Both the position numbers and the translations under genes were made by a program. Below are positions 40,603 through 56,110 of a stretch of DNA of 58,328 nt, piece after piece (within the stretch, counting starts at the first letter, position 1; each line of letters opens with the position of its first letter). The notes below the pieces were generated by a model. The model was not told where the DNA came from and made no database searches. It worked only from the letters and a program-made list of their open reading frames with translations. Location: the IMG/VR virus record IMGVR_UViG_3300043414_000784, positions 1 to 58,328 of that record. One strand, 5' to 3'. The DNA is from a virus. Its lineage: Duplodnaviria > Caudoviricetes.

Positions 40603-40633
40603 GGTTTTCTCCTATATTGGCGGACCATGGCTA

Positions 40634-40662: not shown

Positions 40663-40668
40663 GCCGAA

Positions 40669-42624
40669 CTATTGCGCTGGAGGAGCTCCGCCGCCGCCCA
40701 TCAAGGCTGCGAGAGGATTGGCTGCTGCGCCTGCTTCTTCTGCAGGAGCTTTTGCTGCTATCTGTTCTCTGTCCTTAATGTGTTTGTCGACCAGTGCCTT
40801 GTCTGCCTCTGGAAGCGAATCGTACTCGGCTGACATGACGTAGGTATAGGCTTCTTCCAGCATGGCTTTGTGCTCTTGCAATTCTCTTGGTGCAATGTAT
40901 GCCTGGTTGGCAATCATGCGTTCGAATATTTCTCGCTGTCTTATGGCCGCTAATTGTGTTCTATCTACCAAGGAGTCTAGCTCGTTAAGTTTAAGCATAC
41001 CAAGGATAGCTCTGGCTGTTAGGCCTGCTTCTTTGAGAAGCGGAATCATTTGGTAGATTTCTTGGCGACGTGCCATAGGGTCGAGTGAAAAGCTTGTACC
41101 GTATTCTACGACAAGGTCGAATCCGCCTTGGATATCCGCGCCTTGCAGGTCTACGGTTTCGAATGCACGTTCTTTGCCTAGCACTTTGATTGTCTTAGGT
41201 GTCTTCCAGTGTTCGCGGACAATGGATAGGTAGTCTTTGTAAACTGCTTCTACGAATCCTACGTATTTGTTAAACAGACGTCGGCGAATCATATTGGATT
41301 GTTCGACCGCGTACTGCATTGAGAAGCCTGAAGTTTCTCTGGACTGCTGACCTACAAGTGCCTCGGTAATGCCCATGATGTCATCGAGGTTTTGCTTCAT
41401 ACGGTCACGGATATTAGGAAGGGCTGCCGGCATAGGCAGTGGTTCCATGAAGTTCGGGGGAATTGCGCCGGTGTATTTCACGATGTCCCAAGGGGAGTTT
41501 GTGATAGAACCTTTGGCAATCTCTGCTGATTCTGGAATGAGTAAGCGGGCTACACCGTGCGCTGCTAGGATATCCAGCATGACGTTGTCGAGTCTGTTGA
41601 TAACGTCCTGCAGAGCTGCAGCGTATGCTACTACAGACTTGCCCCAGTAGGTGCCAGGCACGTCGATGTCTGTCAGGAGGTGGTAGGGCAGTTTAGCGTA
41701 GGGAGCGCCTTGCTTGCCGTCTTTGCCTACTGTGTGGAATCTGTGTGGTGATACGGATAGCTCGGTCAACTGGCAGCCGTCTTCAAGGCACCAGCAGTAA
41801 CGACCTTGCATTCCGTTTTCCGGTGTGCCTGTTTCCCAGTATTGGTAGACTCGGACGATGTCGTAGAAGTTCTTGTTGCCGATGGAAGACCTGGAGGCAG
41901 GCATGTTTGCTGTCTCGTCCTGGCTTCTTAGGCGATACTTCTGTAGTTCTTCTATCTTGTCTGGGAAGAGACGGCAGGCTGTCTCGTATCGCATTGGGAG
42001 TTCTTCGAATACGAATCTAACGTCGTCCCACACGGATGCGTCTGCATCTGGATAGACTGCCCAAACGGAAGGTACAGTGTAGGCAAAGTCGCCCTCGGTC
42101 TTTACAGAGTTTGTTGCTTCGTCGTAGGAGACAATCTCGCCTTTATCTGGGTCGAGCACTGCCTTGCCAAAACCGTTGCCGTAGACTAACGTATTAAGAT
42201 TAACGCGGTCTTGGGTTTCTTGCATCTTGTATTGACGGATACCGAAGCGTACTAGTTTGTCTGCAGCGTCTGCTCGACGACGGTCGTCACGGTCTGAGGT
42301 CAGCGGGCGTGGTACGACTGTTGGTGGGTTTGCGGACATCTGTGAATGGAAGAAGCGGATGTTCTTCATGATATAGTTGGCTGCTACGTTTGATGCCGAA
42401 GAGTCGACAGGGGCAAGGCCAAGCTCGGATACTGATTCAAAGGAGAGATTGACGTCTCCGCCTGTGAAGAACTCTTCGAAGCGCGAAGCAAAGACTGCTC
42501 GCTCGTTCTGCTCCCACTGTGCTTCTTCCTTACGTCGTGCAAGTTTGGCAAACTCGAGACGCTTCTTTAGTTCTTGTTCTATCTTTTCCTTGGAGTCCCA
42601 AAGGTCTAGGGTATGGACTGGCAT
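40669..42624 (-). CDS. Portal protein (P22-like)
   Basis: 651 aa after TerL; GNGFGK, YWGKS.V...QD.IN.L and GITEALVG...SG pattern. Confidence 0.85.
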   Translation of the reverse strand: MPVHTLDLWDSKEKIEQELKKRLEFAKLARRKEEAQWEQNERAVFASRFEEFFTGGDVNLSFESVSELGLAPVDSSASNVAANYIMKNIRFFHSQMSANPPTVVPRPLTSDRDDRRRADAADKLVRFGIRQYKMQETQDRVNLNTLVYGNGFGKAVLDPDKGEIVSYDEATNSVKTEGDFAYTVPSVWAVYPDADASVWDDVRFVFEELPMRYETACRLFPDKIEELQKYRLRSQDETANMPASRSSIGNKNFYDIVRVYQYWETGTPENGMQGRYCWCLEDGCQLTELSVSPHRFHTVGKDGKQGAPYAKLPYHLLTDIDVPGTYWGKSVVAYAAALQDVINRLDNVMLDILAAHGVARLLIPESAEIAKGSITNSPWDIVKYTGAIPPNFMEPLPMPAALPNIRDRMKQNLDDIMGITEALVGQQSRETSGFSMQYAVEQSNMIRRRLFNKYVGFVEAVYKDYLSIVREHWKTPKTIKVLGKERAFETVDLQGADIQGGFDLVVEYGTSFSLDPMARRQEIYQMIPLLKEAGLTARAILGMLKLNELDSLVDRTQLAAIRQREIFERMIANQAYIAPRELQEHKAMLEEAYTYVMSAEYDSLPEADKALVDKHIKDREQIAAKAPAEEAGAAANPLAALMGGGGAPPAQ

Positions 42625-42627
42625 GGA

Positions 42628-42834
42628 TTACTCCTTTTTCTTTTGCTTCCGTACTTTACCCGGAAAACGAATAAGAAGCAATTTAATCAAGCTTTGTTTT
42701 TCTTCGCCGTTGGAAGTAGTCTTGCTGGAGTTGCTGTACTTTTTCTCTTGTGAGTCCGACCCAGTCTCCCGCATAGTCTGTGACCTTTCCTTTTTTTTGC
42801 ATTCCTGGCACCCGCATCCATTCTTTCCGTGCAT
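42628..42834 (-). CDS. Small overlapping Cys-containing ORF
   Basis: Strong AGGAGG RBS; MHGKNGCGCQECKKK. Confidence 0.4.
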   Translation of the reverse strand: MHGKNGCGCQECKKKERSQTMRETGSDSQEKKYSNSSKTTSNGEEKQSLIKLLLIRFPGKVRKQKKKE

Positions 42835-43000
42835 TGTACCTCCTAGTGCCTCTTGCTACATGCAATACGTTATTGTAGTCCTGAAGTGCTCTGGCGACTC
42901 GGCGCATTTTCTCTATGCGTCTACTCGTGTAGACAGAAAGTCCTGCGAAGACCATAAGCTGCACCAGCAAGAGTATAACGAAAGTTACCAGCGAGTCCAT
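42683..43000 (-). CDS. Hypothetical membrane protein
   Basis: GGGGGAG RBS; N-terminal TM segment. Confidence 0.5.
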   Translation of the reverse strand: MDSLVTFVILLLVQLMVFAGLSVYTSRRIEKMRRVARALQDYNNVLHVARGTRRYNARKEWMRVPGMQKKGKVTDYAGDWVGLTREKVQQLQQDYFQRRRKTKLD

Positions 43001-45456
43001 GGTCTCCCCCATGCAGAGCGTTTAATTTTAGTCTGAGTCTGGGCCTTTGCGTGTTTTTCTCTGTTGTATTCACGGACTTGCTGGTCCCAGCTTTTAGCGA
43101 TGTCTACTACATTTCCTTCGTATTTCGGACGGTTGTCTACAAAGTAGTTTAGTGCATCACAAAGGTGGTAGTCGTGGGCGTGTGCAATCTTGGTTGGGTT
43201 GGTCTCGGACCACTGAGCTGATTGGAGTTCGTCCACCAGGTCTGTACACCAGTCGGCCACAAACAGGTTTACTCCGAGGGCGTTGTTGGATGCTGCAATC
43301 ATGTCAAGCTTACGGTCTGACTTTTTGTAGACTCCCATGTAGCTAATGCCCTGGGCTGCCGCGAGCTGCATATACCAGGTCGCAGAGGTGTCGTATATGC
43401 GTCTGACTATGTTCAGGCCAGCAGTACGTCGCATGACCTCGTTAATGGTCTCGTTGGGGTTCTTTGAGCGTAGGTAGTCGGCCTTGATGATATACCAATG
43501 GCCGGTCGAGGGGTCCTCGGCTGCCACGATAAGGCCATGCTCGGAGGCGGCTGCTGGGTCTGAGGACTCGACATGACGCCAGGCTGGGCTGTAGTTGACA
43601 GGGTTACGGATAATACTAGGCCGGAAGTTGTAGACCCCTCGGTCTCCGACGAGCCAGTCTCCGTGGAGGATTGTGTTCATCATGGACTCGCCCATTACCC
43701 GGGCTGTCTCTAGCTGGACTTGCTTTTCCTCGTCGTCGATGGCTGGGTTGTCTAGCATGTTGATACGAATAGTCATTGCTAGTTCTGGTGGCAGAGAATC
43801 CAGGAAGTGTTTGACTTCGGGGTTAGGAACCTTTGGTGTAAAGGTTAGGAGCATTGGCCCTTTATTGATAAGGATTCGTTTAGATGTTTCTTCTATAATA
43901 CGGGAAGACGCGGGAAGCTCGTCACACCAAGCTGCATGACCGGTAAAGGACTGCACGGCCTGTTGGGCCTGGTTAGTATTGTGGTGAGAGAAATAGAGAA
44001 TGGTATTACCGTTGTATTTATTGATGACTTTCTGCAATGCGCCGCCTTGCCGGATTTCTCGGATAGAGTCTGGCTCGTGGATATGGCGGATAATACGCTG
44101 GTGCAGGGATTCCTCGACCTGCTTTGAGGTACGGCCAAGGATGTAGAATTGAAGAGAGTCGTGCCAGTGGTCTGGCCGCTTCCAGGTTACCTCGTCTTCG
44201 CGGAACATGGTCGCGAATGCTTTGGCTCCGGTGGAGGACTTTCCTGAGTTGTGTGTAACCAGGCCGTTGGCTAACAGGTAGAGATTAGTAGAAGAGTCTA
44301 CGTGCAAGTCGTAAGTTTCTACTTCTCCCGCTGGTTCTGGCTTGAGACTGATGTAGTTTGGCCGGCTCCGCTTGCCGTAGTTGTCGTACTCTGGTTTCCA
44401 ATGTTTTTGCTCAGAAACAAGATGTGGCTGCAATTCTGAGTAGATACGCTTAATGTCGTGAGGATTTCTGCAAGACAAAGTCCATACAGGTGCATTGACG
44501 TACTTTGGTCTGTCGTCTATATGCCAGGACATCTGTACTTGCCAAAGTGAAAGGATGGCCCACTCTAGAGCCTTAAGCACGTCTGTTGCCTGCATACTTA
44601 CGCTGAACATTACGGTCTTAGCTTTTACACTACCAGTCAGACAACCGTCGGTATCCATGACTCCAGCGACAAACTCTACTAAGGATTTGCGTGACCAGGT
44701 TTTAATTGCGGTTAGATTTACAGTCTTTTCATGAGCATAGCGATGTTTACACCAATCTTCGTAGTAAGAAGGTTCTTTGCAATCTTTCAGAACCCAAGTG
44801 TAATTAGAGATATGCTGTCTTACAGCTTCTCCGCCTAGCAAGCTTGCGACTTTCTGTGGAACACCTTCTTGCCCTGAGATGGAAAGTCTACGTTCACGAG
44901 AGCAACCATCGCCAAGCAGAGCACCTAGTGCATAAGGAGCGAAGGGCTCTACCATTCCAATATCGGCCTGCACAAAGTTTCTGCGAATCGGTGTTTCTTC
45001 AGAATAGTCTAGTGTTGTGCTTTCGGTATGACCCAAGAATTTAGAACTCTTGCGAGCAAACTCTGCTCTTTGCCAGACATGTTCTCCGGTTGCTGTTGCC
45101 CAGATTTTTCCACGGCTAGTCAGGTTATAGACTTGCTTAGGTCCGTTTTCGAAAGTCTTCAATACCTTGATTGGCCTACCGTCTTCGGAGTAAACATAGT
45201 CGTTTGGCTCAATAAGCTCGATAGGCATAGCTCCACCAGGAGTCATGACTAGCGTTCCCTTGGCAAGGCACTGGTTACCAGCTCTTACGACAATGTACCG
45301 CCGCTTGCGTTGAAGGACGGCGTTGATGATTTGCTGTTGGGCGTCGGTTGCTTTAGAGCCTGGCCTGGTTGGGTCGAAGGCCTCGAGGAGCTCTTTAGTT
45401 TTGAGTTGCTCCGCAGCCGCAGCGAGTTGCCGTAGGAGCGTGTCCTTGGAACTCAT
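42985..45456 (-). CDS. terL: Terminase large subunit containing an intein (about 482 aa after splicing)
   Basis: Split Walker A AGNQ|SGKS; Walker B AWCDE; LTFTP; nuclease SDP...DALNY. Confidence 0.92.
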   Translation of the reverse strand: MSSKDTLLRQLAAAAEQLKTKELLEAFDPTRPGSKATDAQQQIINAVLQRKRRYIVVRAGNQCLAKGTLVMTPGGAMPIELIEPNDYVYSEDGRPIKVLKTFENGPKQVYNLTSRGKIWATATGEHVWQRAEFARKSSKFLGHTESTTLDYSEETPIRRNFVQADIGMVEPFAPYALGALLGDGCSRERRLSISGQEGVPQKVASLLGGEAVRQHISNYTWVLKDCKEPSYYEDWCKHRYAHEKTVNLTAIKTWSRKSLVEFVAGVMDTDGCLTGSVKAKTVMFSVSMQATDVLKALEWAILSLWQVQMSWHIDDRPKYVNAPVWTLSCRNPHDIKRIYSELQPHLVSEQKHWKPEYDNYGKRSRPNYISLKPEPAGEVETYDLHVDSSTNLYLLANGLVTHNSGKSSTGAKAFATMFREDEVTWKRPDHWHDSLQFYILGRTSKQVEESLHQRIIRHIHEPDSIREIRQGGALQKVINKYNGNTILYFSHHNTNQAQQAVQSFTGHAAWCDELPASSRIIEETSKRILINKGPMLLTFTPKVPNPEVKHFLDSLPPELAMTIRINMLDNPAIDDEEKQVQLETARVMGESMMNTILHGDWLVGDRGVYNFRPSIIRNPVNYSPAWRHVESSDPAAASEHGLIVAAEDPSTGHWYIIKADYLRSKNPNETINEVMRRTAGLNIVRRIYDTSATWYMQLAAAQGISYMGVYKKSDRKLDMIAASNNALGVNLFVADWCTDLVDELQSAQWSETNPTKIAHAHDYHLCDALNYFVDNRPKYEGNVVDIAKSWDQQVREYNREKHAKAQTQTKIKRSAWGRPWTRW
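44248..45270 (-). mobile_element. Intein with LAGLIDADG homing endonuclease (341 aa)
   Basis: N-terminal CLAKGT, block B TGEH, LGALLGDG and VAGVMDTDG, VETYDL, C-terminal VTHN followed by Ser. Confidence 0.93.
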
Positions 45457-45734
45457 TAGAGGCTTGCTCGTTTCTTCTGTCTTGGATTCTTTGTTAGGGC
45501 TTTGTGTAGGTCTTCTGTGGCGACCAGCTCTGCGTCGCCGATGCTTCGCACATCCACGGCGTCCAAGGATAGAATCTTGCGTTTGTCGATGTAAAAGTAA
45601 TACGCCGTGACAGAACCATCTTCTGTGTAGACAGCTTCCCAGGTCTCAGCCGGAATCACTACAGAAATGCCTGTCGTGAGTAGCACGGAATATTGATGCC
45701 GCACTTTGATAATATTTTTAATTGGCTGTATCAT
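45456..45734 (-). CDS. Hypothetical protein
   Basis: AGGAG RBS; stop overlaps the TerL start. Confidence 0.6.
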   Translation of the reverse strand: MIQPIKNIIKVRHQYSVLLTTGISVVIPAETWEAVYTEDGSVTAYYFYIDKRKILSLDAVDVRSIGDAELVATEDLHKALTKNPRQKKRASL

Positions 45735-46299
45735 CTGGCTCCTCCTGGGCTTCGGAGAGATTAGCAGGTTTCTCCTCGTCAAGCAATGGTCTAATTAGAT
45801 GAGCGTTTTGTTTGAGGAATCCGCGTAACTGGTTAATATCCATATTATCAAACTTGGTATGAGTCTTCTGGGTTTGCTCCTGCGCCTCATAGGCCAGCAG
45901 TGTTTTCAGGATGTTAACCTTAGCCGAGGAGGCACGGGGGTCCGGGTCGTCCAGGATTTGGACTGCAGCTTCGAGGGCCTTGTCTGTCAAGTACTTGATT
46001 TTCTGGCGGGACTCTTCCTTGTTGATGAACCAAGCTCGGAAGCCCGGCTGGTTCCACCAGGTCCTAAGAGCAGGGATGCCGGTCAAGGAGATGGCACGGT
46101 CCACGGACAAGCTCTTCAGGTCGAACAGCATAGTCTCAGGGTCCGCCAGGAAGGCCAGTAAGGCGGCCTTGGCTTTACGTTGCGAGTCGGTAGGCCTGAA
46201 GGTATCGGCAATCAGTTTGCCTATTACGTTGGTCTCCGTTTCGCTGTCCTGCGCTGGATGTCCTGTATCGCGCTCGAATACCGGTTTCTTTCGTTCCAT
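45718..46299 (-). CDS. Putative terminase small subunit
   Basis: Helical protein with an HTH-like segment, two genes upstream of TerL. Confidence 0.5.
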   Translation of the reverse strand: MERKKPVFERDTGHPAQDSETETNVIGKLIADTFRPTDSQRKAKAALLAFLADPETMLFDLKSLSVDRAISLTGIPALRTWWNQPGFRAWFINKEESRQKIKYLTDKALEAAVQILDDPDPRASSAKVNILKTLLAYEAQEQTQKTHTKFDNMDINQLRGFLKQNAHLIRPLLDEEKPANLSEAQEEPDDTAN

Positions 46300-46574
46300 A
46301 GGGGCTCCTCGATTTGGAAGAGGACTGTGCCTCTGATTCTCGTTAACTGGTTGATGACGCCCCGTTGCTGGAGCATTTGCAGGTCTTCGTAAAACCTGGA
46401 GTGATTCATCCCCAGGGTTCGGCAGGCGGTGAGAATATTGATACGCATGTAGCCTTCGCCGAACCGCTCAAAGAAATCATAGTTTCCGTAAAGCAGGATA
46501 AAGAGAACTTTATAATGCCTTAGCTTGACCGTACCGAGTCTAGGCCGCTTTCTTGCGGAAGTGACAGCGTGCAT
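46224..46574 (-). CDS. Possible winged-helix DNA-binding protein
   Basis: ACRTLGMNHSRFYEDLQML..RGVI wHTH-like pattern; start uncertain. Confidence 0.4.
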   Translation of the reverse strand: MHAVTSARKRPRLGTVKLRHYKVLFILLYGNYDFFERFGEGYMRINILTACRTLGMNHSRFYEDLQMLQQRGVINQLTRIRGTVLFQIEEPLWNERNRYSSAIQDIQRRTAKRRPT

Positions 46575-47589
46575 ACTTGGTAGCCTCTCTGCGTCGCTTC
46601 TCTGTAATGCCTGGAAGCCGGGAGACCCAGCGTTCGAAGGAATCCTGGGAGTCGAATCGGTTCAAGGCAGAGAGCATATCTTTGTAGAACATACCGGGTC
46701 TGACTGAAGAAATCAATGGTTTACTTGTCTTATAGCCTGCCTTATGCTTTTGGATAGCCTTGTAAAGCGAACCGTGGGCCTTGTAAGTCTTGGCTTTGAC
46801 TCCCCATTGGTAGGTATGGTCTACGCATTCGAGGACGCCTAGCTGTTTAAGTTCCTTGAAGAAACGGGAAATAGTAATTGGGGTTACGCCTACTTGGTTA
46901 GCAATAAGCTCGAGCGGCAAATTAAACTTCTCTAGCAGACCCCAGGTCGCACTCAGGATACGAAGCAGGTGGAGCCGCTCTGGAGTCTTACCCCAAAGAC
47001 GGAGTTCCTCTGGCAGGGCAGTCAGGGGGGCTTCGTAGTACTGGTAAGTCCTTGTCTTTCCATCTATGTTAAGGATAGTCCTACTCCCCTCGATAGGCTC
47101 CGGGCTGGACCCACCTTTGACAGGCGGGGGGGAAGAGGAAAGCCAGTCCGAGAGTTCCTCGACTAGGGGTTGATTGACGTAGCATCGTGTTGCTCCGGCT
47201 CTGTCGAAGAAGTGGAGCGTTTCCGGAAGTAGTGTTTTCAGAAAGGAGTCGACGTCGCTTGGAACTGCTCCGTCCAGTACGACGAAGGCTTTGACGTTTC
47301 CACTGACTGACTGGGTGACGAGTGCAAAGGGTAGTGAGAACTCGAGCGCGTTCTTCAGTCGGTCCGCAGTCCAGCCGGTCGGGTAGTCTTTTTTGTCATA
47401 GTCTAGGCAGACCATGTTCTGCAATCCGAGGATTGGCAGACGACTCTTCTTTAGTTTTTGCGTGTTCTCTAGTTGGTCTAGGTAGAAGCGAGTCCGGAAC
47501 CACTGTCTTTCGTTGCCGAGGTCTTTCGGCAGTTTGTACTTCAGGGTAGGGCCGTTCGGGACTTTTAACTCTTTGAATTTTCCCTGCAT
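46540..47589 (-). CDS. Replication initiator/primase, AEP-like N-terminal domain plus C-terminal wHTH
   Basis: VCLDYD (DxD), TQSVSGNVKAF, FD; LIANQVGVTPITISRFFKEL..LGVL; AGGAG RBS. Confidence 0.55.
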   Translation of the reverse strand: MQGKFKELKVPNGPTLKYKLPKDLGNERQWFRTRFYLDQLENTQKLKKSRLPILGLQNMVCLDYDKKDYPTGWTADRLKNALEFSLPFALVTQSVSGNVKAFVVLDGAVPSDVDSFLKTLLPETLHFFDRAGATRCYVNQPLVEELSDWLSSSPPPVKGGSSPEPIEGSRTILNIDGKTRTYQYYEAPLTALPEELRLWGKTPERLHLLRILSATWGLLEKFNLPLELIANQVGVTPITISRFFKELKQLGVLECVDHTYQWGVKAKTYKAHGSLYKAIQKHKAGYKTSKPLISSVRPGMFYKDMLSALNRFDSQDSFERWVSRLPGITEKRRREATKYARCHFRKKAA

Positions 47590-47625
47590 TGTTTATTCTC
47601 CTACTTGATTTTACTTCCCGCCTCT

Positions 47626-47655
47626 GATATAACAATAAATGCCCGGACCTGTCAA
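47626..47655 (-). promoter_or_regulatory. sigma70-like promoter for the rep/packaging arm
   Basis: TTGACA-N18-TATATC with a TGn extension. Confidence 0.5.
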
Positions 47656-47726
47656 GTCCCCCCTGACACGTCGTGCGGTAGCGAGCGTCCCACTCGTTGC
47701 AATTCCCCTACTTGGCCAGTCTGGCT

Positions 47727-48200
47727 TTATGCCAGGCTGGTTTTCTTTTTGTCTAAAATTGTGTCTATCTGCTGCTTCGTCTTCTGCTGGATAATGCCTG
47801 ACCGGCGGTGCCGGGCGTAGTACTCGCATTTAACTTCGCCCATGAAGACGTGCCAGGACATCATTTTAATCCTCGAGACGACGTACAGGGCATGATTGAT
47901 TTTCGGTTTCGCCTCGTTGTCGAACCGCCCGTCCATTTCTTGCAAGACGTAGACCTCCCGGTCGGTCAACTCGGCCAGCCGGACGAGGAGTGCTTCGTCG
48001 CGGGTAAGGTCCAGGTCGCCGTGCCAGACCTTGCCCAGCCCTTCCACGACGACATTCGCGTTGAACAGTACAAGATTCTTGGGAAAGTTCTTCCGGTAGG
48101 TCGACTTGGACCCGGCTATCATACGTCCGTTGTGCCCGAGGAGCAGCCGGACAGTGTTTTTGACGGTCTCAGAGGCGTCGGTCTGGGTAGTGTCGGCCAT
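47727..48200 (-). CDS. Hypothetical protein
   Basis: AAGGAG RBS before MADTTQ. Confidence 0.75.
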   Translation of the reverse strand: MADTTQTDASETVKNTVRLLLGHNGRMIAGSKSTYRKNFPKNLVLFNANVVVEGLGKVWHGDLDLTRDEALLVRLAELTDREVYVLQEMDGRFDNEAKPKINHALYVVSRIKMMSWHVFMGEVKCEYYARHRRSGIIQQKTKQQIDTILDKKKTSLA

Positions 48201-48235
48201 AGTGTTCTCCTTCGCAGTACAGGCATAGTACAACG

Positions 48236-48265
48236 AGTTTAGCACTTCCGGGGGGTTGCGGTCAA
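48236..48265 (-). promoter_or_regulatory. sigma70-like leftward promoter
   Basis: TTGACC-N18-TAAACT with a TGn extension. Confidence 0.55.
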
Positions 48266-48419
48266 GGCCTTTTGGAGGGCGTAACCCCCAGTGTGGACAG
48301 GGAAATTCCCCCTGCCCCCCTACGCTGACCCCACTTGGCCCCTCTTCCGAGCCCAGCCGGCCCCAGAATTGCACCCTCGGTCGGTCAAAGGGGCGGGAGT
48401 GGACGTGGGCCAATCCCCC

Positions 48420-48503
48420 GCTGTCGGGCTGGCCGAGCCTAGCTGACCGAGCCGGGCTAACCGTGTCGGGCTGGCCGAGCCGGACTGGCCGGGTCGGGCT
48501 GGT
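48420..48503. repeat. Six tandem degenerate 14-bp repeats (consensus CGAGYCGGGCTGGC)
   Basis: Units start at 48420, 48434, 48448, 48462, 48476 and 48490; A-rich tract follows. Confidence 0.85.
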
Positions 48504-48550
48504 CTAACCAAATAAAATCTGCCGGACTAAAAAAAAGTTGCTTGACCCCC

Positions 48551-48577
48551 TAAAGTTTTTCCAATACGTGCCGATAT
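48551..48577 (+). promoter_or_regulatory. sigma28 (FliA/SigD)-type promoter for the early arm
   Basis: TAAAGTTT-N11-GCCGATAT against the consensus TAAAGTTT-N11-GCCGATAA. Confidence 0.8.
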
Positions 48578-48584
48578 GTATTAC

Positions 48585-48720
48585 ATCGGCGGGCAAGGAA
48601 GTCCCTCGGTGTTCTCCCTAGAATGACGGCCCTCGGCGCTGAGTCGAGATTGCCACTAGCGAGTTATCTACACCCGGGCCTAGCCCGCGCCGTTATCTAT
48701 TTAGAGGGAGGTCTACCAAC
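48585..48720 (+). promoter_or_regulatory. Structured 5' leader with CsrA-type GGA hairpin
   Basis: Hairpin 48585-48610 presents CAAGGAAG; CTCCCT..TGACGGC can pair with GCCGTTA..AGGGAG (the RBS). Confidence 0.5.
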
Positions 48721-48960
48721 ATGAAACTATCTCAGATGTTCCTTAAACGCCTTCGCGACCTCGATACCAACTCTCGTGGGAAAATCTACAGTCACAAACT
48801 CAATGAAGAACTACAGAGCGCCGGGTCATTCGCTTCCCGAGTCGACCAAGACGGCTCTGCTTTGGTCTATCTCTTCCCTGACCGCTCAAGACTCCGTATC
48901 GAAAATCCGAGCCAAGTAACAGACAAGGCGAGTTTCTACATTCTATCTAACGTGGGGTAA
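48721..48960 (+). CDS. Early hypothetical protein
   Basis: GGGAGG RBS; first gene of the + arm. Confidence 0.75.
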   Translation: MKLSQMFLKRLRDLDTNSRGKIYSHKLNEELQSAGSFASRVDQDGSALVYLFPDRSRLRIENPSQVTDKASFYILSNVG

Positions 48961-48966
48961 ACGACT

Positions 48967-49203
48967 ATGACACAACTACATGACTACCAGCTCGAAGAAA
49001 TGTTTGATGAAATGTTAGACCAGTGTCACGAACCGGTAAAGTTTGGCTGCTTATCTTATGACGTGTCAATCTTCCTTAAACGAGTTGACCCCGTTGCTTA
49101 CCGTCAAGAATTTCTGAACTATCTCGACCTTCAGTTATCGGACGGCCAACTATTCGAACACGCGGACGGCTCAATCCACGACGAAGAAGAGGAAGCAGTA
49201 TGA
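48967..49203 (+). CDS. Acidic early hypothetical protein
   Basis: FDEMLD...LKRVDPVAYR pattern common in phage early genes. Confidence 0.75.
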   Translation: MTQLHDYQLEEMFDEMLDQCHEPVKFGCLSYDVSIFLKRVDPVAYRQEFLNYLDLQLSDGQLFEHADGSIHDEEEEAV

Positions 49204-49484
49204 AGCTCACAATCAATTTCAACGATTTCACGGAATTTCCACAGGACTGGATTGACTCTATCCCAAAACAGGGAGCTGCAGACACTGCGATTTCCCAAAT
49301 CATGATGTACAACACAGTAAAATGCGACAGAGATGGTGCAATAAATTATCTGGCAGGTATCGGGTTCGATGACTCTGAAGAATTACAGCAGGAATCCGAT
49401 GAAACACTGACTAGCCGCATTCTCTGGATTGCGCTACTCGATTGCCGAGAAAACGAAATCAACGAAGCTTATCTAGGAGTCTAA
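49200..49484 (+). CDS. Acidic early hypothetical protein
   Basis: ATGA-coupled ORF. Confidence 0.7.
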   Translation: MKLTINFNDFTEFPQDWIDSIPKQGAADTAISQIMMYNTVKCDRDGAINYLAGIGFDDSEELQQESDETLTSRILWIALLDCRENEINEAYLGV

Positions 49485-49485
49485 A

Positions 49486-49659
49486 ATGTGCATTGCCAGA
49501 TATAAAACACTTGACGGGCATCCTGTCTTCAAGTATTCGGTCGAGCTGTTGGTGCAGACCAACGGAAAGTTAATCAAGATAGCCGAGCTCAACTGCAAAG
49601 ATGAGCAAGAGCTAGCACAGGCGACAGAGTGGGTAGACTACACAATTCAGGGGGAATGA
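49486..49659 (+). CDS. Small hypothetical protein, 57 aa (not in the ORF track)
   Basis: AGGAG RBS; MCIARYKTLDGHPVF... Confidence 0.6.
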   Translation: MCIARYKTLDGHPVFKYSVELLVQTNGKLIKIAELNCKDEQELAQATEWVDYTIQGE

Positions 49660-49662
49660 ACC

Positions 49663-49905
49663 GTGAGTGACTCAAAATATCTACTAAGGCTAACACCAAG
49701 CGAGGCAAATAGTTTACTTTACACCCGACTCAAACGCTCCACCGAACAGCTTATGAAAATTTACCACGATGACGCATTGGATACACCAGAGTCTCTGGAC
49801 GCAGTAATCACGCAACTACAAGAGCTCAAAGCGTGGGTGGAATTGCTTGATACGTGGAAGAAAGAGACGCTTACTAAGCTTAACAGTAAGGAGACAACCA
49901 AATGA
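49663..49905 (+). CDS. Hypothetical protein
   Basis: GGGGG RBS; GTG start. Confidence 0.65.
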   Translation: MSDSKYLLRLTPSEANSLLYTRLKRSTEQLMKIYHDDALDTPESLDAVITQLQELKAWVELLDTWKKETLTKLNSKETTK

Positions 49906-50015
49906 CTTTCAATTTCACACTGCTAGAGTATTTCATTGTATTCGTGACAGCAATCGCGGTCCTCTCCATGTTTGACCTCATCAAGACTGCAATCAAAGAA
50001 GGAATGGAAAAATGA
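49902..50015 (+). CDS. Small membrane protein, 37 aa
   Basis: AAGGAG RBS; MTFNFTLLEYFIVFVTAIAVLSM... Confidence 0.55.
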   Translation: MTFNFTLLEYFIVFVTAIAVLSMFDLIKTAIKEGMEK

Positions 50016-50392
50016 ATTTAACTAAACAACAAATATTCGACCGAGCAACGGAACATCTTAGACAACAAAGAGCGCAGAGCATTGACCCTGTCACCTCTGT
50101 CTGCCGCTATCGCGGTCCGGACGGCCTGAAATGCGCAGTCGGTGTGCTCATCCCGGACGAACTATACAGCCCGGAAATGGAGGGCTTGTTGGCCGACGAG
50201 GTAGTCAAGCGGCATCCGGTACTGGCCTCACTCTTCAGCGCGGACAGCCCGAGCCTGCTTAACTCTCTGCAGCATGTACACGATTTCTGGGCATTGAAAG
50301 ACTGGGAAGAGGGCTTCGCGGAGATTGCAAAAGAGCACCGGCTTAACCTCCGGGCGAAGCGGGAGCGGCAAACACCAGCGGGCATTGTTTAA
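50012..50392 (+). CDS. Conserved phage hypothetical protein
   Basis: CRYRGPDGLKCAVG.LI.DE.Y...LQ.VHD pattern. Confidence 0.75.
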   Translation: MNLTKQQIFDRATEHLRQQRAQSIDPVTSVCRYRGPDGLKCAVGVLIPDELYSPEMEGLLADEVVKRHPVLASLFSADSPSLLNSLQHVHDFWALKDWEEGFAEIAKEHRLNLRAKRERQTPAGIV

Positions 50393-51014
50393 GCTCGGCA
50401 GAGCAGGCAGCCACGCCGAGAACGTCAGCAGCCCGGACATCCAGAGCCTTAGTACCGACGAGCCACCAGTCATTCACAATCTTAGCTCGGTAGTCCTCGA
50501 CGGACAGGCCGAGCCGGGCAGCAACCCGAAAGTCTAGGACTTGCAACAATTGTCGGACAAGGTCCATGCGAGTCTCAATTTCACCAGCTTTACCTCGGAC
50601 ACCAAGGGAGGCCTGATGGCTCATAAGCAGCGAGAAAGAGGAGACGACCCGTTTATCGCAGGCAGTCTGGAGGAAAATAAAAGCCATCGAGGCGGCAGTC
50701 TGGGCGAAACAATGCAGCTTAACACCTGGCCGGACAGCTTTGATTCCTACAACAGCGTCAATCATACGGATGCCAGCGAGGACGTCACCACCGGGGGAGT
50801 CGATATAGACCGAGACAACCGGGGACTTGGCGGACACAGTGTAGAGCTCTTGGATAAAAGCGGAGGCGGAGGGCTCGCTTATCTCGCCGACAAGCCGGAC
50901 GAGGTTATCTGGGCCGAGCTCGACGACCTCGAAAGGCTGAGAGCGCATGATTTCTTCCCCGAAGACTACTGGGGAGAATACTAAGCAAAGCAGGGCGAGC
51001 AAAACCTTGAACAT
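50343..51014 (-). CDS. ClpP-like serine protease with N-terminal signal peptide
   Basis: GGAGG RBS; MFKVLLALLCLVFSPVVFG; IDSPGG, AASMA (Ser), MSHQ (His) and NDWWL (Asp). Confidence 0.85.
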   Translation of the reverse strand: MFKVLLALLCLVFSPVVFGEEIMRSQPFEVVELGPDNLVRLVGEISEPSASAFIQELYTVSAKSPVVSVYIDSPGGDVLAGIRMIDAVVGIKAVRPGVKLHCFAQTAASMAFIFLQTACDKRVVSSFSLLMSHQASLGVRGKAGEIETRMDLVRQLLQVLDFRVAARLGLSVEDYRAKIVNDWWLVGTKALDVRAADVLGVAACSAELKQCPLVFAAPASPGG

Positions 51015-51057
51015 ATGAGAGACCTCCAGGTCTGACAATACCAAGAAAGGGCGGGGA

Positions 51058-51312
51058 ATGCAAAACAAAACCTATATAATCACGGCCATGATAGACGGAT
51101 GGGAGTTTGCACTGGCTAGGGACGTCCCGGAGGAGGAAGTCGAGGGAGAATTGCAGCACCTCACCCGGAGGCACGAGTACAAGAACGTCGTGCGATTCGA
51201 GGTCAGGCCGAGCGAAGCGAGGACTGCTTCCCTTGGAAGGGGCAAGGAACACCGGGAAACTCAGACTGCCTACCCAAGACCTATCGAACACACCCAGGAG
51301 GGGGGTAGATGA
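51058..51312 (+). CDS. Hypothetical protein
   Basis: ORF in the early cluster. Confidence 0.55.
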   Translation: MQNKTYIITAMIDGWEFALARDVPEEEVEGELQHLTRRHEYKNVVRFEVRPSEARTASLGRGKEHRETQTAYPRPIEHTQEGGR

Positions 51313-51509
51313 ATACTATCCATCGACTCGAGTATATTTCGCATCATCTTAAAGTCTGTGCAGAGCGTTCCATTTCCGAGCCAAATAGCCTTCTCATAAT
51401 AAACCTAGAACGAGCAGCAAGAGGGCTGAACGAGCTCATCGAGCATTTAAAAGCGAAGGAAGAGGCGGGACTGGGCCGAGCACCAGGCGAGGCTCCCCTG
51501 AGCGAGTGA
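51309..51509 (+). CDS. Hypothetical protein
   Basis: GGAGGGGG RBS; coupled ORF. Confidence 0.6.
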   Translation: MNTIHRLEYISHHLKVCAERSISEPNSLLIINLERAARGLNELIEHLKAKEEAGLGRAPGEAPLSE

Positions 51510-51565
51510 AACGGGAGGAGTAGGACTATCCTTAACATAGACAGCATATCAAGGAGTTATATACC

Positions 51566-51916
51566 ATGGCAGACCTCTTCGAGAAGACCCAAATTTCCAT
51601 CAAAGGCATCCCTTGCAACCTCTTCCTTTCTATCAGCCCAGCCTTCACGCCAGGCAAGGACCATACCCTTTCGGCTACAATTACCCTGGCTGCTGTCCCT
51701 GAGGTTCTCCTCGCGGCAGTCACCGAGTTCGACGCTATGCATATCCCGGACGGCTCCATCGAGGACCACCTAGACAGACAGGTAGCCCTAGCCTCAGCCG
51801 AAGCCCTGCTCGACACGAACAAGCTCCAGGAGAAGGCAGCCCAGACTCTCCGCAGACTCGAGTCCCTCTACATGGACTACTTCGGACTACCAGACAGAAC
51901 AATCTCGGGAGTTTAA
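51566..51916 (+). CDS. Hypothetical protein
   Basis: AAGGAG RBS. Confidence 0.7.
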   Translation: MADLFEKTQISIKGIPCNLFLSISPAFTPGKDHTLSATITLAAVPEVLLAAVTEFDAMHIPDGSIEDHLDRQVALASAEALLDTNKLQEKAAQTLRRLESLYMDYFGLPDRTISGV

Positions 51917-51918
51917 CC

Positions 51919-52095
51919 ATGGCAAAGAAACAGATAACCGTGAAAGATAATCTCAGCGAGCAAAATAGAGCAAGAAAAGACTTGAATCTCCCGCTTCTTC
52001 AGCCTAAAGAACGGAAGTGCCTTTCGTGTGATACGATTTTCATCTCGGCTACCTACAGGAGGTGCTTAAAATGTCGAACGGAATGCCCGTCGTAA
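51919..52095 (+). CDS. Small zinc-finger protein, 58 aa (not in the ORF track)
   Basis: GGGAG RBS; RKCLSCD...RRCLKC. Confidence 0.65.
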   Translation: MAKKQITVKDNLSEQNRARKDLNLPLLQPKERKCLSCDTIFISATYRRCLKCRTECPS

Positions 52096-52322
52096 AGAAA
52101 AGAAAGCCATCTAAACTAGCAGACTCCGAGGATGGATTCCCGGACCACTTTGTCCCGGCCTACCTGATTCTCTTTGACCGCAAGACCAAGATGTACCGCT
52201 GCTACCACGCAGATATGGAAGACCTAGTGGTGCTAGACGATGACCCAATCGATGCACTGATTGCACTCATAGATATTATTTCACTGGAGGTTAACACCAA
52301 TGAAGACGAACGGTATAACTAA
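52071..52322 (+). CDS. Hypothetical protein, HicB-antitoxin-like fold possible
   Basis: AGGAGG RBS; YLILFD....YRCYHADMEDLVVLDDDPIDALIAL pattern. Confidence 0.45.
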   Translation: MSNGMPVVKKRKPSKLADSEDGFPDHFVPAYLILFDRKTKMYRCYHADMEDLVVLDDDPIDALIALIDIISLEVNTNEDERYN

Positions 52323-52581
52323 CAAGGACAATCCCGAATCAAACGAAGTGCAGATTCCTTCCGAGCCGAAGGCGAGCGTGGTATCCCTGGCCGACTATAA
52401 AAAGAAAAAGCAGACCGAGCAAGAAGTCAAACAAGTATTCAAGCAATCCCTCGACAACGACCAAGTCATGAAACGCTACAACATCAACCAACCAACAGTC
52501 GAAGAGCGGACAGAAAAAATCAAGCAAGGCATCGAGCGTATCAACAAACTCATGGAGCAAATCAAGGAAGCAAACAAATGA
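52300..52581 (+). CDS. Hypothetical protein
   Basis: GGAGG RBS; VVSLADYKKKK; coiled coil. Confidence 0.65.
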   Translation: MKTNGITNKDNPESNEVQIPSEPKASVVSLADYKKKKQTEQEVKQVFKQSLDNDQVMKRYNINQPTVEERTEKIKQGIERINKLMEQIKEANK

Positions 52582-52669
52582 TACTGTTCTTGCTCATTCC
52601 AATCTTTGTTGGTATGTTATTGCTCGTCGTTGTGGACATCCTACAAGATATGTTCGGAGGCTACTAATA

Positions 52670-52933
52670 ATGTTCTACTCTCTCGCAATCCTAGCCATGA
52701 CCTACACTGTCGTACCGGATGCAAGCCAACCCAACCCGACTAACCCTAAAGAAACACCGAGGCGCAAGGCCGGCCGGCTCTGCCCGGACGAAGTAAAGAA
52801 GCCGCGCAACCCGAAGCAAGAACCCAAGGACGTGCGCGTCCTACCTTACTGCGAGCCGAGCGGAGTGAAGGCTCCCTCCGAACCGAGCGGAGTGCCTGCA
52901 CCGACAAAGCCAGCGCGGAGGATTGAGAAATGA
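52670..52933 (+). CDS. Pro-rich protein with hydrophobic N-terminus
   Basis: GGAGG RBS; EPSGV repeated twice. Confidence 0.55.
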   Translation: MFYSLAILAMTYTVVPDASQPNPTNPKETPRRKAGRLCPDEVKKPRNPKQEPKDVRVLPYCEPSGVKAPSEPSGVPAPTKPARRIEK

Positions 52934-53325
52934 AGCCGCAATACCAGACCAGACAATCAGCAGGACTAGACCTGCCGTCCCTCGAATCTTGCACCCTCTA
53001 CCCCGGCCAACGAGTCTTGCTCGACACGGGAGTCTACCTTAAGGACGTCCTCCCCGCTGGCATCCCCGGGACTGCTTTCGGAATGGTCGTCCCTCGCTCC
53101 GGTCTGGCAACTAAGCACGGGGTGACTATCCTGAACTCCCCAGGCATCGTAGACCTTGACTACTCAGGAAAAATTCATGTAAATCTAATCAATCTCGGTA
53201 AGGATATCGTAAACATACAAGCAGGCGACCGCATCGCCCAGCTCGTCTTCACCACTGCCTATCGTCGCTCCGAGCTAGTCAAAGACGAGGAACGGACAGC
53301 AGGGCACGGTTCCACCGGCACGTAG
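52930..53325 (+). CDS. dut: Trimeric dUTPase
   Basis: SAGLDL, PRSGLA, GIVDLDYSG, GDRIAQLV and RTAGHGSTG. Confidence 0.95.
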   Translation: MKPQYQTRQSAGLDLPSLESCTLYPGQRVLLDTGVYLKDVLPAGIPGTAFGMVVPRSGLATKHGVTILNSPGIVDLDYSGKIHVNLINLGKDIVNIQAGDRIAQLVFTTAYRRSELVKDEERTAGHGSTGT

Positions 53326-53348
53326 TCCACATTTCAGAAGGATGAAAT

Positions 53349-53582
53349 ATGAGACGCAGCTACAGCCTACTCCGCAGTGACTACCTATACCACTGCCTCT
53401 TCACCGACGAGTTCAACACTCCGGAAGAGAAGATTAACCAACAGATAGAGGACATCCTCAAGAACGAGGCAGAGACATGGGAATGGGCGGAGTACGACTG
53501 GGTCAAGCACAAGGTCGTCAGTGAATTCATGGAGCCAAAGATTGCTTACTACGTCGTGGAAGTACGGGGGAAAGAGAAATGA
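53349..53582 (+). CDS. Hypothetical protein
   Basis: AAGGA RBS; coupled ORF. Confidence 0.6.
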   Translation: MRRSYSLLRSDYLYHCLFTDEFNTPEEKINQQIEDILKNEAETWEWAEYDWVKHKVVSEFMEPKIAYYVVEVRGKEK

Positions 53583-53869
53583 AAGTCTACATCATCTGCT
53601 TTGACGGTGACCACATCTCCTATCCCACCGCCTTCCTCGACAGAGAGACGGCCGAGGAGCGCCTTAGAATTATGCAGGACGATATGGATGCGGACGCAGA
53701 TAAGCATCAGCGCAAGAGTTACTCGCAGTGGTACTCGGTGGAGGAGCTGGAAATGGAACGCCCCATCAAACTGAGCACCGAAGGTACCTTGAAGTTCCTT
53801 GAAATGCTAGACGGACAGGCCGAGCCAAACGAGAAACTCAAGAAGGCTGCACTGGAGGTTGAAAAATGA
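53579..53869 (+). CDS. Hypothetical protein with TacA/AtaR (DUF1778)-like C-terminal segment
   Basis: N-terminal part paralogous to the next gene; C-terminal IKLSTEGTLKFLEMLDGQAEPNEKLKKAA. Confidence 0.6.
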   Translation: MKVYIICFDGDHISYPTAFLDRETAEERLRIMQDDMDADADKHQRKSYSQWYSVEELEMERPIKLSTEGTLKFLEMLDGQAEPNEKLKKAALEVEK

Positions 53870-54096
53870 AAGTCTACATAATCACATTCAATAAACTGGA
53901 GATTGCTTTTGATAAAGCGTATCTCAACAAAACACAGGCTGAGAATGACATGCGGCGATTAGCAAAGGATATGGATAGTAAATCTGCAGAATTACAGATA
54001 AAGTCATACTCGCACTTCTACGCTGTAGATGAACTGGAACTAGTCTTCGGCGAGCCGACTCAACCGATGACACTAGAGGAGATATACGAGCTATGA
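53866..54096 (+). CDS. Hypothetical protein, paralog of 53579..53869
   Basis: Shares MKVYII, AxL....AE and KSYS..Y.V.ELE. Confidence 0.7.
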   Translation: MKVYIITFNKLEIAFDKAYLNKTQAENDMRRLAKDMDSKSAELQIKSYSHFYAVDELELVFGEPTQPMTLEEIYEL

Positions 54097-54434
54097 CCGA
54101 CTACCTAGACGAACTCGAGCGCGACTTCGGCTACATGCTCACACATACGTCGGGCTATGTATGCCCAGGTTGGGAGCAACTCATACGGGATATGCTCACC
54201 GAGATTGCACATAACTCCGATAGAATAAGTGCCCCAGAATTTACACAGATAAAGGAGAAGTTCGGCACACTCCGAGTCTACGGCTACAACATCAGCGACG
54301 ATGAACAAGAAATACTGGACAAGTACGAGCGTCTCTCCGCAGTAACATGCGAAGTCTGCGGCAAAGCAGGCACAATGCGAGAGAAGAACCGGTGGCAATA
54401 CGTGGCCTGCGACGAACATGCGAAGGAGGACTGA
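54093..54434 (+). CDS. Conserved phage zinc-binding hypothetical protein
   Basis: GW..LI, QIKEKFGTLRVY and CEVCG...ACDEH. Confidence 0.8.
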   Translation: MTDYLDELERDFGYMLTHTSGYVCPGWEQLIRDMLTEIAHNSDRISAPEFTQIKEKFGTLRVYGYNISDDEQEILDKYERLSAVTCEVCGKAGTMREKNRWQYVACDEHAKED

Positions 54435-54468
54435 GCCGAGCAAAGTGAGGCTCCCAACGACCGACAGA

Positions 54469-54690
54469 ATGGAGGGAAGCGTGCAAGTCTGGCTTAACTT
54501 TGAGTCCGGTATAGAACTAAAGAAGTACACAATCGAACTTGGATTCTACCTTATGCAATGGAAATTTTCTATTCGACTAACAGAAGGAGGACTAAAAACA
54601 ATAAGCCTTGGACCGCTTTACATTTCCATCTGGGACAACGACAAACTACGCGCCTGGCACGACAGCCTTATTGAGAGGACTGACAAATGA
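54469..54690 (+). CDS. Hypothetical protein
   Basis: Coupled to the next gene; start uncertain. Confidence 0.5.
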   Translation: MEGSVQVWLNFESGIELKKYTIELGFYLMQWKFSIRLTEGGLKTISLGPLYISIWDNDKLRAWHDSLIERTDK

Positions 54691-54950
54691 ATAAGACCAC
54701 ACTGCTTCTAGTTATCCTGGGCTCTGCAACCCTAGCCATTGGTGTATCCAAGCTAGCCGGAGTCCTGCTTTCTTCTCCCGGACTATCTGCCCTGAGTTGT
54801 ACACCGGTCCACATCGTAGCAGTCGGTGGCTGTGACTCGGACGGACTCTGCGGTGTCGTCGCCCTCTCGCAAGACAAGCAAGTAATCAAAGGCAAGGCAT
54901 CCTACCCAGTGGCAGGACTGGTTGATTGCCGGGAGTCTGTCAGTGAGTAA
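54687..54950 (+). CDS. Secreted/membrane Cys-containing protein
   Basis: GAGG RBS; hydrophobic N-terminus; four Cys. Confidence 0.6.
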   Translation: MNKTTLLLVILGSATLAIGVSKLAGVLLSSPGLSALSCTPVHIVAVGGCDSDGLCGVVALSQDKQVIKGKASYPVAGLVDCRESVSE

Positions 54951-55170
54951 TCCGTTCGCCTGGAAGTACGAAACATACGAGGAGGAATCTACAGTGAGCA
55001 GCAATAATCAAGCAACAGTATATCTCGAGGCAATCATCGAAGCACCAGAAGACTCGACACTCTCCGACGGAGTCGTAGTCATCCGTGAGCCGTCCCAACC
55101 AAGCAAGGCAAACCTCAAACTCGTGTTCGACCTTGAGACAGGAGCACTCCTCGATGCGCGGAAAGACTGA
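54943..55170 (+). CDS. Hypothetical protein
   Basis: GGGAG RBS before a GTG start. Confidence 0.5.
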   Translation: MSNPFAWKYETYEEESTVSSNNQATVYLEAIIEAPEDSTLSDGVVVIREPSQPSKANLKLVFDLETGALLDARKD

Positions 55171-55403
55171 CCCCAAGTCTGACTATCCACCGGATAGACC
55201 AGACTGGCTTATGGTCGACGAGTACGCCCGAAAGAAAAGCATCTTCGGGTGTATCCTCTGCGACAAGACACACAAGGCAAAGGACTGCGAGCACAAAGCC
55301 AAGAGGACAGCCTCGAATAGTTATACCAGCAAGGTCTATCAAACCGAACCAGACGAAACTTACGGGAGTTGGGGATAAACCCCCTCCCCAGGAGGTCACT
55401 ACT

Positions 55404-55655
55404 ATGTTCCTTGTATCAGCCTACTACCAACATGCCTCAACAGGAACCCGATTCACAGACCAGCTCGGAAGAGTCTGGGAGAAGCAAGTCCAGTATAAGC
55501 AAGGCTTCCTCGTCGGGATAACCCGGGACACCCCGTCTTTCACCGAGCAACAAATAAAAGGTATTGTCATCGACGGGTTCCACGTGCTACCATCCGACCA
55601 TGAGAAAGACGACGATAATAAAAGAAGTTTCACATCCAGATTCCTTCGGCGTTGA
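55404..55655 (+). CDS. Hypothetical protein
   Basis: AGGAGG RBS. Confidence 0.6.
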   Translation: MFLVSAYYQHASTGTRFTDQLGRVWEKQVQYKQGFLVGITRDTPSFTEQQIKGIVIDGFHVLPSDHEKDDDNKRSFTSRFLRR

Positions 55656-55869: not shown

Positions 55870-55879
55870 GGGGGAAGCA

Positions 55880-56107: not shown

Positions 56108-56110
56108 AAA

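Follow-up and report, generated by a model that had tools for sequence, protein, structure and literature searches.

A conserved sigma-28-type promoter predicted at the head of the rightward gene arm of an uncultured freshwater phage

Which RNA polymerase starts the rightward genes of an uncultured freshwater phage, and in what state would its host have to be? The question arises at positions 48551-48720 of IMG/VR record IMGVR_UViG_3300043414_000784, a virus record that is complete (58,328 bp, bounded by direct terminal repeats measured at 127 bp) and the whole of which we refer to as the window. The genes lie in two arms. The leftward arm runs from ~48,200 down to ~8,400, and the rightward arm runs from 48,721 across the genome ends to ~9,400, with ~60 tightly packed small open reading frames (ORFs) followed by DNA polymerase A, ribonucleotide reductase and a helicase. 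An earlier note on this DNA had proposed that the rightward arm is driven by a promoter of the flagellar sigma-28 class together with a CsrA-type hairpin, tying phage expression to host motility. From the sequence evidence below, we consider it probable that 48551-48577 works as a promoter of the sigma-28 (FliA/SigD/WhiG) class, read by the host sigma-28 holoenzyme and starting the rightward unit. The elements of the site and its surroundings are the following.

48551..48558, + strand: -35 octamer TAAAGTTT, 8/8 consensus letters
48559..48569, + strand: spacer TTCCAATACGT, 11 nt, equal to the consensus length
48570..48577, + strand: -10 octamer GCCGATAT, 7/8 letters of GCCGATAA, CGA core present
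48583..48586, + strand: predicted transcript start, 6-9 nt past the -10 octamer, placed from known sigma-28 promoter geometry
48529..48546, + strand: run of 8 A (48529-48536) followed by TTGCTTGAC (48538-48546), just 5' of the -35 element
48721..48960, + strand: first rightward gene, 79 aa, matching no known family

The site reads TAAAGTTT TTCCAATACGT GCCGATAT at 48551-48577 on the + strand, and the first rightward ATG (48721) lies 143 nt downstream. It matches 15/16 letters of the sigma-28 consensus TAAAGTTT-n11-GCCGATAA, that of E. coli and Salmonella class 3 flagellar promoters as given in PMC2859248. Both strands of the whole window were scanned for this consensus with up to 3 mismatches, which gave two matches, compared with a mean of 0.43 over 100 shuffles (two or more matches in 8/100); the second match, at 13603-13629 (-), has 3 mismatches and lies inside a gene. 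With at most one mismatch, 48551-48577 is the only site in the genome, where ~0.001 would be expected by uniform-base arithmetic, and a looser sigma-28 pattern run over the whole window again found this site only. The sequence and the scan of the window thus bear out the claim that a 15/16 match to the sigma-28 motif heads the rightward arm. No sigma-70-like hexamer pair spaced 16-18 nt apart was found on the + strand of 48400-48720; a sigma-70 reading of the rightward site from TTGACC at 48543-48548 was rejected, there being no -10 partner at 16-18 nt.

Relatives were retrieved through the two neighbouring leftward genes, in both viral contigs and metagenome contigs. Every viral-contig relative that reaches the place has the site on the same strand with 0-3 mismatches (6/6: L001, L002, L003, L005, L006 and L008), a count that leaves out three further viral-contig loci ending before the site. 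Seven metagenome relatives are at least 63% identical and extend 450 nt or more upstream, and six of them have the site (L129, L136, L137, L138, L141 and L144). Recurrence of the motif at the same position in related contigs, which the earlier note had set as a check, is therefore what both collections show. The orthologous site is perfect (16/16) in L001 and L002, and a further perfect copy lies downstream in L003 and L005. Tandem copies occur in L001 (3), L003 (2), L005 (2), L138 (2) and L141 (4, within 550 bp); the window has one.

The way in which the site varies is informative. Across 18 close loci (87,411 nt), 15 sites with an 11-nt spacer and at most 2 mismatches (13 of them distinct) lie on the rightward strand and none on the opposite strand, where uniform base composition would predict 0.023 on each strand. 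In 19 distinct related sites, picked by their likeness to the consensus, CGATA is invariant (19/19), the last -10 letter is C, A or T, mostly C, and the -35 letters T-AAG--T are nearly invariant; the spacer is 11 nt in all related sites but one (N12 in L003). When the orthologous intergenic regions of 10 lineages are aligned, both octamers are kept and the variation falls in the upstream region and in the last 3-4 nt of the spacer, and paralogous copies of the site have unrelated spacers. Octamers that are kept while their flanks drift, in copies with unrelated spacers, form a two-block promoter signature and not a palindromic operator. In site copies that lack a hairpin, 22-33 nt separate the site from an ATG preceded by a ribosome-binding site; in several of the copies with a hairpin this distance is ~50 nt. 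These comparisons indicate that the sigma-28-type site is under selection and is placed like a promoter. The A-run 5' of the -35 element is present in most aligned relatives, with the exception of L001 and L129, and TTGAC in 5/10 alignment rows; we infer that the A-run and TTGCTTGAC may serve as an UP-element-like or activator site.

Similar sites are found in other phages. A search of viral contigs with the exact 16-letter consensus gave at least 120 stretches, and 78 loci (L305-L382) were examined among the matches listed. In 11/78 of these loci there are at least two perfect sites (2-4 each; 33-55% GC), and in all of the multi-site loci but L324 the sites lie on a single strand within a few kb. 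Single perfect matches in viral contigs include chance ones, but two within one stretch are not chance. For 66/120 distinct perfect sites among the matches listed, a ribosome-binding site and then an ORF (at least 40 aa) with its start codon follow within 12-90 nt (median 32), whereas random positions on the same strands give this arrangement in 414/2,400 (17%). Additional letters are preferred around the listed perfect sites, namely C before TAAAG, T after TAAAGTTT and T before GCCGATAA. The site-cluster contigs are phage-like, encoding terminase, portal, ligase and methylases, and no close cultured relative was found for those tried. Three complete records (G043, G044 and G045) have 5, 6 and 6 sites with at most 2 mismatches and 0 in reversed-pattern controls; in two of the three, all sites are on one strand within 6-8 kb. 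This suggests that the sigma-28 promoter design is not confined to the phage family of the window. A further phage type, represented by L118 and L139 (110-kb contig), has a homologue of the first leftward gene of the window (157 aa) that is 64% identical. Its sigma-28-like sites are on the strand of this homologue, and TAAAGTTT-N12-TCCGATAG stands 20 nt before an ATG with a ribosome-binding site. Near distant homologues of the 157-aa gene (<60% identity, in other phage types) no consistent motif was found.

Which polymerase would read the site? A six-frame Pfam search of the whole phage gave no match to FliA_WhiG, Sigma70_r2, r4 or r4_2 at E<=1, and a T7-type polymerase was not found in the six-frame search of the phage, whose control was uninformative in bacteria. 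As the phage has no recognisable sigma factor or T7-type polymerase, the site is most likely read by the host's sigma-28 (FliA-class) holoenzyme.

A related phage contig, with a portal 80% identical, provides a lead to the host, as it was binned in a 3.9-Mb metagenome-assembled genome (MAG) titled 'Proteobacteria bacterium'. A second contig of this candidate MAG has a sigma-28-like site and an early gene that shares 72.7% identity with 49486-49659 of the window, and the other contigs of the MAG have 52% GC, like the phage. The MAG encodes FliA (263 bits, cut-off 189.6), as do most of its relatives (above the cut-off in 12/13 genomes, the candidate MAG and 12 relatives), as well as CsrA (79.5 bits) and has 8 flagellin-family matches. 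Its FliA shows 84-93% identity to the FliA of MAGs that bear the titles Silvanigrellaceae, Silvanigrellales or Oligoflexia, and 77% to the Fluviispira multicolorata protein, which places the candidate MAG in the Bdellovibrionota. The Silvanigrellaceae-like clade is not known as one of obligate predators. In 33 genomes of the candidate MAG's family, queried with 38329-58328, only the binned phage contig matched, plus one 28-nt match outside repeat arrays, and an alignment of the phage's 349-aa protein against genome contigs returned the same binned contig only. For a Bdellovibrionota-like host, which was to be sought through protein homology or through clustered regularly interspaced short palindromic repeats (CRISPR), the outcome is divided: one related contig sits in a FliA-positive, Bdellovibrionota-related MAG, and no CRISPR or prophage link was found in the 33 genomes. 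A Bdellovibrionota host is one lead, given by one binning event, and not proof.

Between the rightward site and the leftward arm, the intergenic space holds further conserved elements.

48265->48236, - strand: sigma-70-like promoter TTGACC-18-TAAACT, with TG before the -10 hexamer, heading the leftward arm
48283..48337, no strand assigned: nearly invariant non-coding block AACCCCCAGTGTGGACAGGGAAATTCCCC ... CCCCACTTG, in the alignment of 10 lineages, between the divergent promoters
48422..48528, no strand assigned: iteron-like direct repeats with a 14-nt period, GGGCTGGCCGAGCC type, GCCGGAC core, 5 copies in register
47727..48200, - strand: first leftward gene, 157 aa, of a family widespread in phages

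The opposite arm had been assigned a sigma-70-like promoter, and this assignment stands: TTGACC-18-TAAACT is conserved in relatives, kept as TTGAC(C/G)-17/18-TA(A/C/T)A(C/A/T)T wherever their alignment rows reach. The block at 48283-48337 is kept across lineages whose neighbouring proteins are only ~73% identical, and it could be a regulator, origin or packaging site. Searched for in genome contigs (596 Gb), the block pattern was too loose, giving at least 120 stretches with no relative among the matches listed; one stretch of those listed also held CCCACTT nearby, without a sigma-28-type site. The same pattern found no new relative in viral contigs.

Iteron-like arrays of the same kind are present in relatives, with variable copy number. 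The 349-aa protein (46540-47589, -) has a weak HTH_Crp_2 match and a poor structure model (predicted local distance difference test, pLDDT, 57.8), and its language-model neighbours are replication proteins of the AEP-type primase and HTH_36/DnaD_N kinds (score 0.91), which is no more than a lead. Such neighbours would fit the adjoining iteron array, and the array at 48422-48528 and the 349-aa protein are a possible origin/initiator pair directly upstream of the sigma-28 promoter. The family of the 157-aa protein occurs in many phage contigs of 56-207 kb, with the core GSKS.Y...FNAN...KVWHGDLD...R.E.E. AlphaFold2 models it as a mixed alpha/beta domain (pLDDT 92.2) that has no fold match in the PDB (best template modelling score, TM, 0.24), no Pfam or PHROG family and, in BFVD, matches to uncharacterised phage proteins only. 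Judged from this model, it does not look like a sigma factor.

Downstream of the site, the predicted transcript would open with a leader that contains a hairpin.

48578..48720, + strand: untranslated leader, ~140 nt, with the ribosome-binding site GAGGGAGG at 48704-48711
48583..48612, + strand: 5' hairpin, 48583-48594 pairing with 48601-48612 around the loop AAGGAA (48595-48600), in the minimum-free-energy fold

The ~140-nt leader length is shared only with the L144 lineage; other relatives have 22-65 nt. Rfam found no family in the leader and returned only a sub-threshold SorX match at 47687-47744 (16.8 bits versus a cut-off of 46.6). In the fold of the full leader, the ribosome-binding site pairs with an upstream UCUCCCU, and this fold is not significant (z = -1.41). 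The 5' hairpin, previously placed at 48585-48610, is recovered as 48583-48612, with CAAGGAAG (48594-48601) spanning its loop. The first 45 nt past the -10 element fold at -13.3 kcal/mol (z = -1.24 versus shuffles), a stability equalled or exceeded by 15.8% of 3,679 background windows of 45 nt, so that the hairpin of the window is not exceptional on its own.

We also surveyed the 45 nt after each of 18 promoter copies with single-sequence folds. A stable hairpin (-13.1 to -15.8 kcal/mol) follows 13/18 copies, with the core stem mostly beginning 10-14 nt past the -10 octamer, and the remaining 5/18 run straight to a ribosome-binding site without one. The stems differ (GGUCGGGG/CUCCGGCC, GCGGGAG/CUCCCGC, GAGCCC/GGGCUC and the window's own), as do the terminal loops of the 13 hairpins: AAGGAA (2), AUGGAGC (3), AAGUCA (2), AUACA, AUGCA, ACAGA, AAGACA, GCAA and GAACGCCA. 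RNAalifold, given an unanchored alignment of the 13 leaders, whose loop lengths differ, predicted no pairs. Stem-loops of the ompA type, located at the 5' end, stabilise bacterial and phage mRNAs. The phage hairpins resemble them in being stable, in lying within a few nt of the predicted 5' end and in keeping structure while sequence changes; they differ in that the phage 5' end is a prediction from sequence. The most plausible role of the hairpin is to shield the RNA against 5'-end-dependent decay; CsrA binding is the less plausible one.

The claim that the leader hairpin is a CsrA/RsmA binding site besides the promoter, with control as in flagellin mRNAs, has several points in its favour. 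The loop AAGGAA, closed by C-G in the window and in the near-identical L144, fits CANGGANG, the CsrA/RsmA motif as given in the earlier note; the loop of three more hairpins is AUGGAGC; a GGA is present in the ribosome-binding site GAGGGAGG as well; and the candidate host MAG encodes CsrA. Yet GGA is in the terminal loop of just 5/13 hairpins, in two loop types, the other loops having none, and five promoter copies are hairpin-less. CANGGANG is common in the window (39 matches versus 27.9 expected), and the only other GGA of the leader, that of the ribosome-binding site, is ~110 nt from the loop, a separation that probably exceeds the bridging distance of CsrA dimers. A stem position that is kept with a GGA loop that is not kept fits RNA stabilisation. 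CsrA binding is possible for this lineage and not supported as the function; the loops vary too much for the earlier claim of CsrA-type control, and we regard it as quite improbable.

Two other explanations concern the promoter itself. The motif might be a promoter read with a specificity factor made by the phage, whether an unrecognised sigma-like protein or a virion-borne or early polymerase, in which case the motility link would be spurious. Most of the phage proteins have no known family, among them the 157-aa protein, which is the first sigma-70-driven product, and two giant virion proteins, and some phages, such as the phiEco32-like ones, do encode sigma factors (PMC8948821). However, the motif heads the arm, so its reader would be needed at or very soon after entry; no sigma-70-family region matched in the phage (E<=1) nor Sigma70_r2 in 10 other site-cluster records (E<=0.1); and the mixed alpha/beta fold modelled for the 157-aa protein is unlike the all-helical sigma domains. 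A match of 15-16/16 to the consensus in several unrelated phage lineages (33-55% GC) is more simply explained by a shared cellular enzyme, and we consider a phage-made factor unlikely. That the two-block motif is no promoter at all, but an operator, a partition or packaging site or a chance match, draws on its adjoining the iterons and the invariant non-coding block, which surely bind something. Against this, the motif is asymmetric and always points along the genes, its copies, whose spacers are unrelated, stand 22-50 nt ahead of start codons, and the strand count of 15 versus 0 with 0.023 expected per strand rules out chance. This explanation strikes us as very improbable.

The preferred reading, a promoter recognised by host sigma-28, has its own difficulties, and the following points weigh against it. 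One sigma-28-type site is all that the window offers to an arm of 19 kb, scant provision for a lytic programme. The seventh metagenome relative, L139, which is of the same sequence type as the viral L118, has sigma-28-like sites in another arrangement, and the position tallies over the 19 related sites favour the consensus by the way the sites were picked. The fliA evidence comes from the candidate host MAG and its relatives, and in this MAG the loose sigma-28 pattern occurs 26 times versus 30 in the control, the strict pattern shows a weak excess (11 versus 6), and the consensus is not clear in the regions upstream of flagellin genes. Among the four sequencing runs examined, the single RNA run covers only 51556-51968, and no RNA cover of 48400-49000 was found in public runs. 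Finally, a very divergent phage sigma-like factor or virion polymerase would escape Pfam searches, and the virion proteins of 1,744 aa and 1,291 aa match no family.

If the host sigma-28 reading is right, the host sigma-28 RNA polymerase holoenzyme would bind 48551-48577 and start the rightward transcription unit. The transcript would most likely begin at ~48583-48586, placing the hairpin at its very 5' end, and the unit would extend from 48721 over the genome ends to ~9400, taking in the ~60 small genes and those for DNA polymerase A, ribonucleotide reductase and helicase. The leftward arm would start from the sigma-70-type promoter ~290 bp away. Sigma-28 is free only after the flagellar basal body has been completed (in Bdellovibrio, in the free-swimming attack phase), and because of this the rightward programme would be launched exclusively, or most efficiently, in motile hosts. 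We infer the reading enzyme, the transcript start, the role of the hairpin and the motility link.

The layout of the genome leaves room for one long transcript, as no terminator-like site was found on the + strand from 48400 to the record end. Four such sites lie on the + strand within 1-10000, of which 1344-1359 and 8626-8640 are weak, 9380-9406 is the strongest and the last is at 9459-9478. The start of the rightward arm is variable. The homologue of the 79-aa first rightward gene is third in the arm of L005, so early gene order is mosaic. Contigs of related strains from other metagenomes skip 48956-49138, 49203-49499 and 49646-49900, with the leftward genes at 46000-48200 staying 95-99% alike; as parts of 48950-49900 are skipped, the rightward arm is, over its first kb, mosaic in its gene cassettes.

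The leftward arm has the gene order 157-aa protein, 349-aa protein, 823-aa ORF, portal, adaptor, chaperone domain and lysozyme, with domains of a P22/SU10-type portal, an SU10-type adaptor, a tail-fibre chaperone and a lysozyme. The 823-aa ORF (42985-45456, -) is likely the large terminase, judged from its position just before the portal gene. It is long for a large terminase, its sole Pfam match being a weak Hint domain near the N-terminus (E = 0.0036, below the cut-off), and it could harbour an intein. The phage genome yielded no tRNA genes. Cultured phages gave no DNA match to the window, the best portal match among them being a Microbacterium phage at 23% identity; DNA contigs 90-99% alike to the window are present in several aquatic metagenomes.

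At 47604-47750 (+), a sigma-70-like promoter, TTGATT-17-TATAAC, overlaps the ribosome-binding site of the leftward 349-aa gene, and ~80 nt past it lies a terminator hairpin with a T-run (47714-47750, +). The promoter is TTGACA-17-TATAAC in L002, L003, L005, L006 and L008 and TTGACT-17-TATAAC in L001, and the pairing of the hairpin is kept through two-sided changes at 8/17 pairs in relatives. This region is a candidate for a ~100-nt RNA antisense to the gap between the first two leftward genes, which might time read-through into the late genes.

How does the rightward site compare with known systems? Like the FliA class 3 promoters of E. coli and Salmonella, it has two octamers, an 11-nt spacer and 15/16 letters (16/16 in L001, L002 and L005), and it faces a gene with a short leader. 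Unlike them, it heads the replication-gene arm of a virulent-looking phage and not flagellar or chemotaxis genes, the -10 octamer mostly ends in C across this phage family, and its FliA dependence is a prediction. PMC3627812 gives, for the attack phase of Bdellovibrio bacteriovorus, TTAAG-N16-CCGATA at 92/140 mapped promoters. These promoters resemble the phage site in that a sigma-28-type motif is used beyond flagellar genes in a free-swimming stage, and our host lead is in the same phylum; they differ in that the phage motif, T[AC]AAG-N15-CCGATA, is one base shorter and has the E. coli spacing. No link of the phage to Bdellovibrio itself was found.

The closest known design is that of phages with CtrA sites, described in PMC9437464: pilus- or flagellum-binding phages of Alphaproteobacteria in which CtrA sites are clustered in promoter regions, termed 'lytic deferment'. 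These phages are alike in that their promoters are wired to a host motility or cell-cycle regulator and that the signature lies in one intergenic or early region and evolved in several lineages. They are unlike the present case in that CtrA modulates promoters, while here the sigma class would be required for initiation, and in that the hosts differ. We found no description of sigma-28-dependent phage early promoters in the full-text literature, a search that left most subscription journals and supplements outside, so that an earlier mention is possible.

Phages of the textbook kind begin transcription with the housekeeping sigma factor of the host, or else supply a polymerase or sigma factor themselves, carried in or newly made. 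The sequence element found here is an ordinary sigma-28 promoter, and what is unusual is its location at the head of a phage arm. Its conservation suggests that the phage may need its host in the swimming state, and the pairing of the two arms with two promoter classes would then amount to a cell-state switch between them. More tentatively, and against our own leaning, a guild of uncultured phages, the present family included, may start first transcription from host sigma-28 promoters, gated by the swimming state of the host. If this were true, the one-strand clusters of 5-6 sites in unrelated complete phages that lack a sigma gene would be early-promoter batteries. It would fit phages that adsorb to rotating flagella, every enterable cell then having active FliA. 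In Bdellovibrionota-type hosts, in which sigma-28 governs the free-swimming stage and this stage alone may be reachable, use of sigma-28 would be the way in which a phage gets transcribed at all.

The motif offers a short, testable marker for host prediction, as the host must carry fliA, and the set of sites provides natural sigma-28 promoters of graded strength. If the rightward arm does depend on host sigma-28, development of the phage would be tied to the motile host subpopulation with free FliA, and non-motile cells would be infected non-productively or late, which would bear on the ecology of lake phages and on the host state to be used for their isolation.

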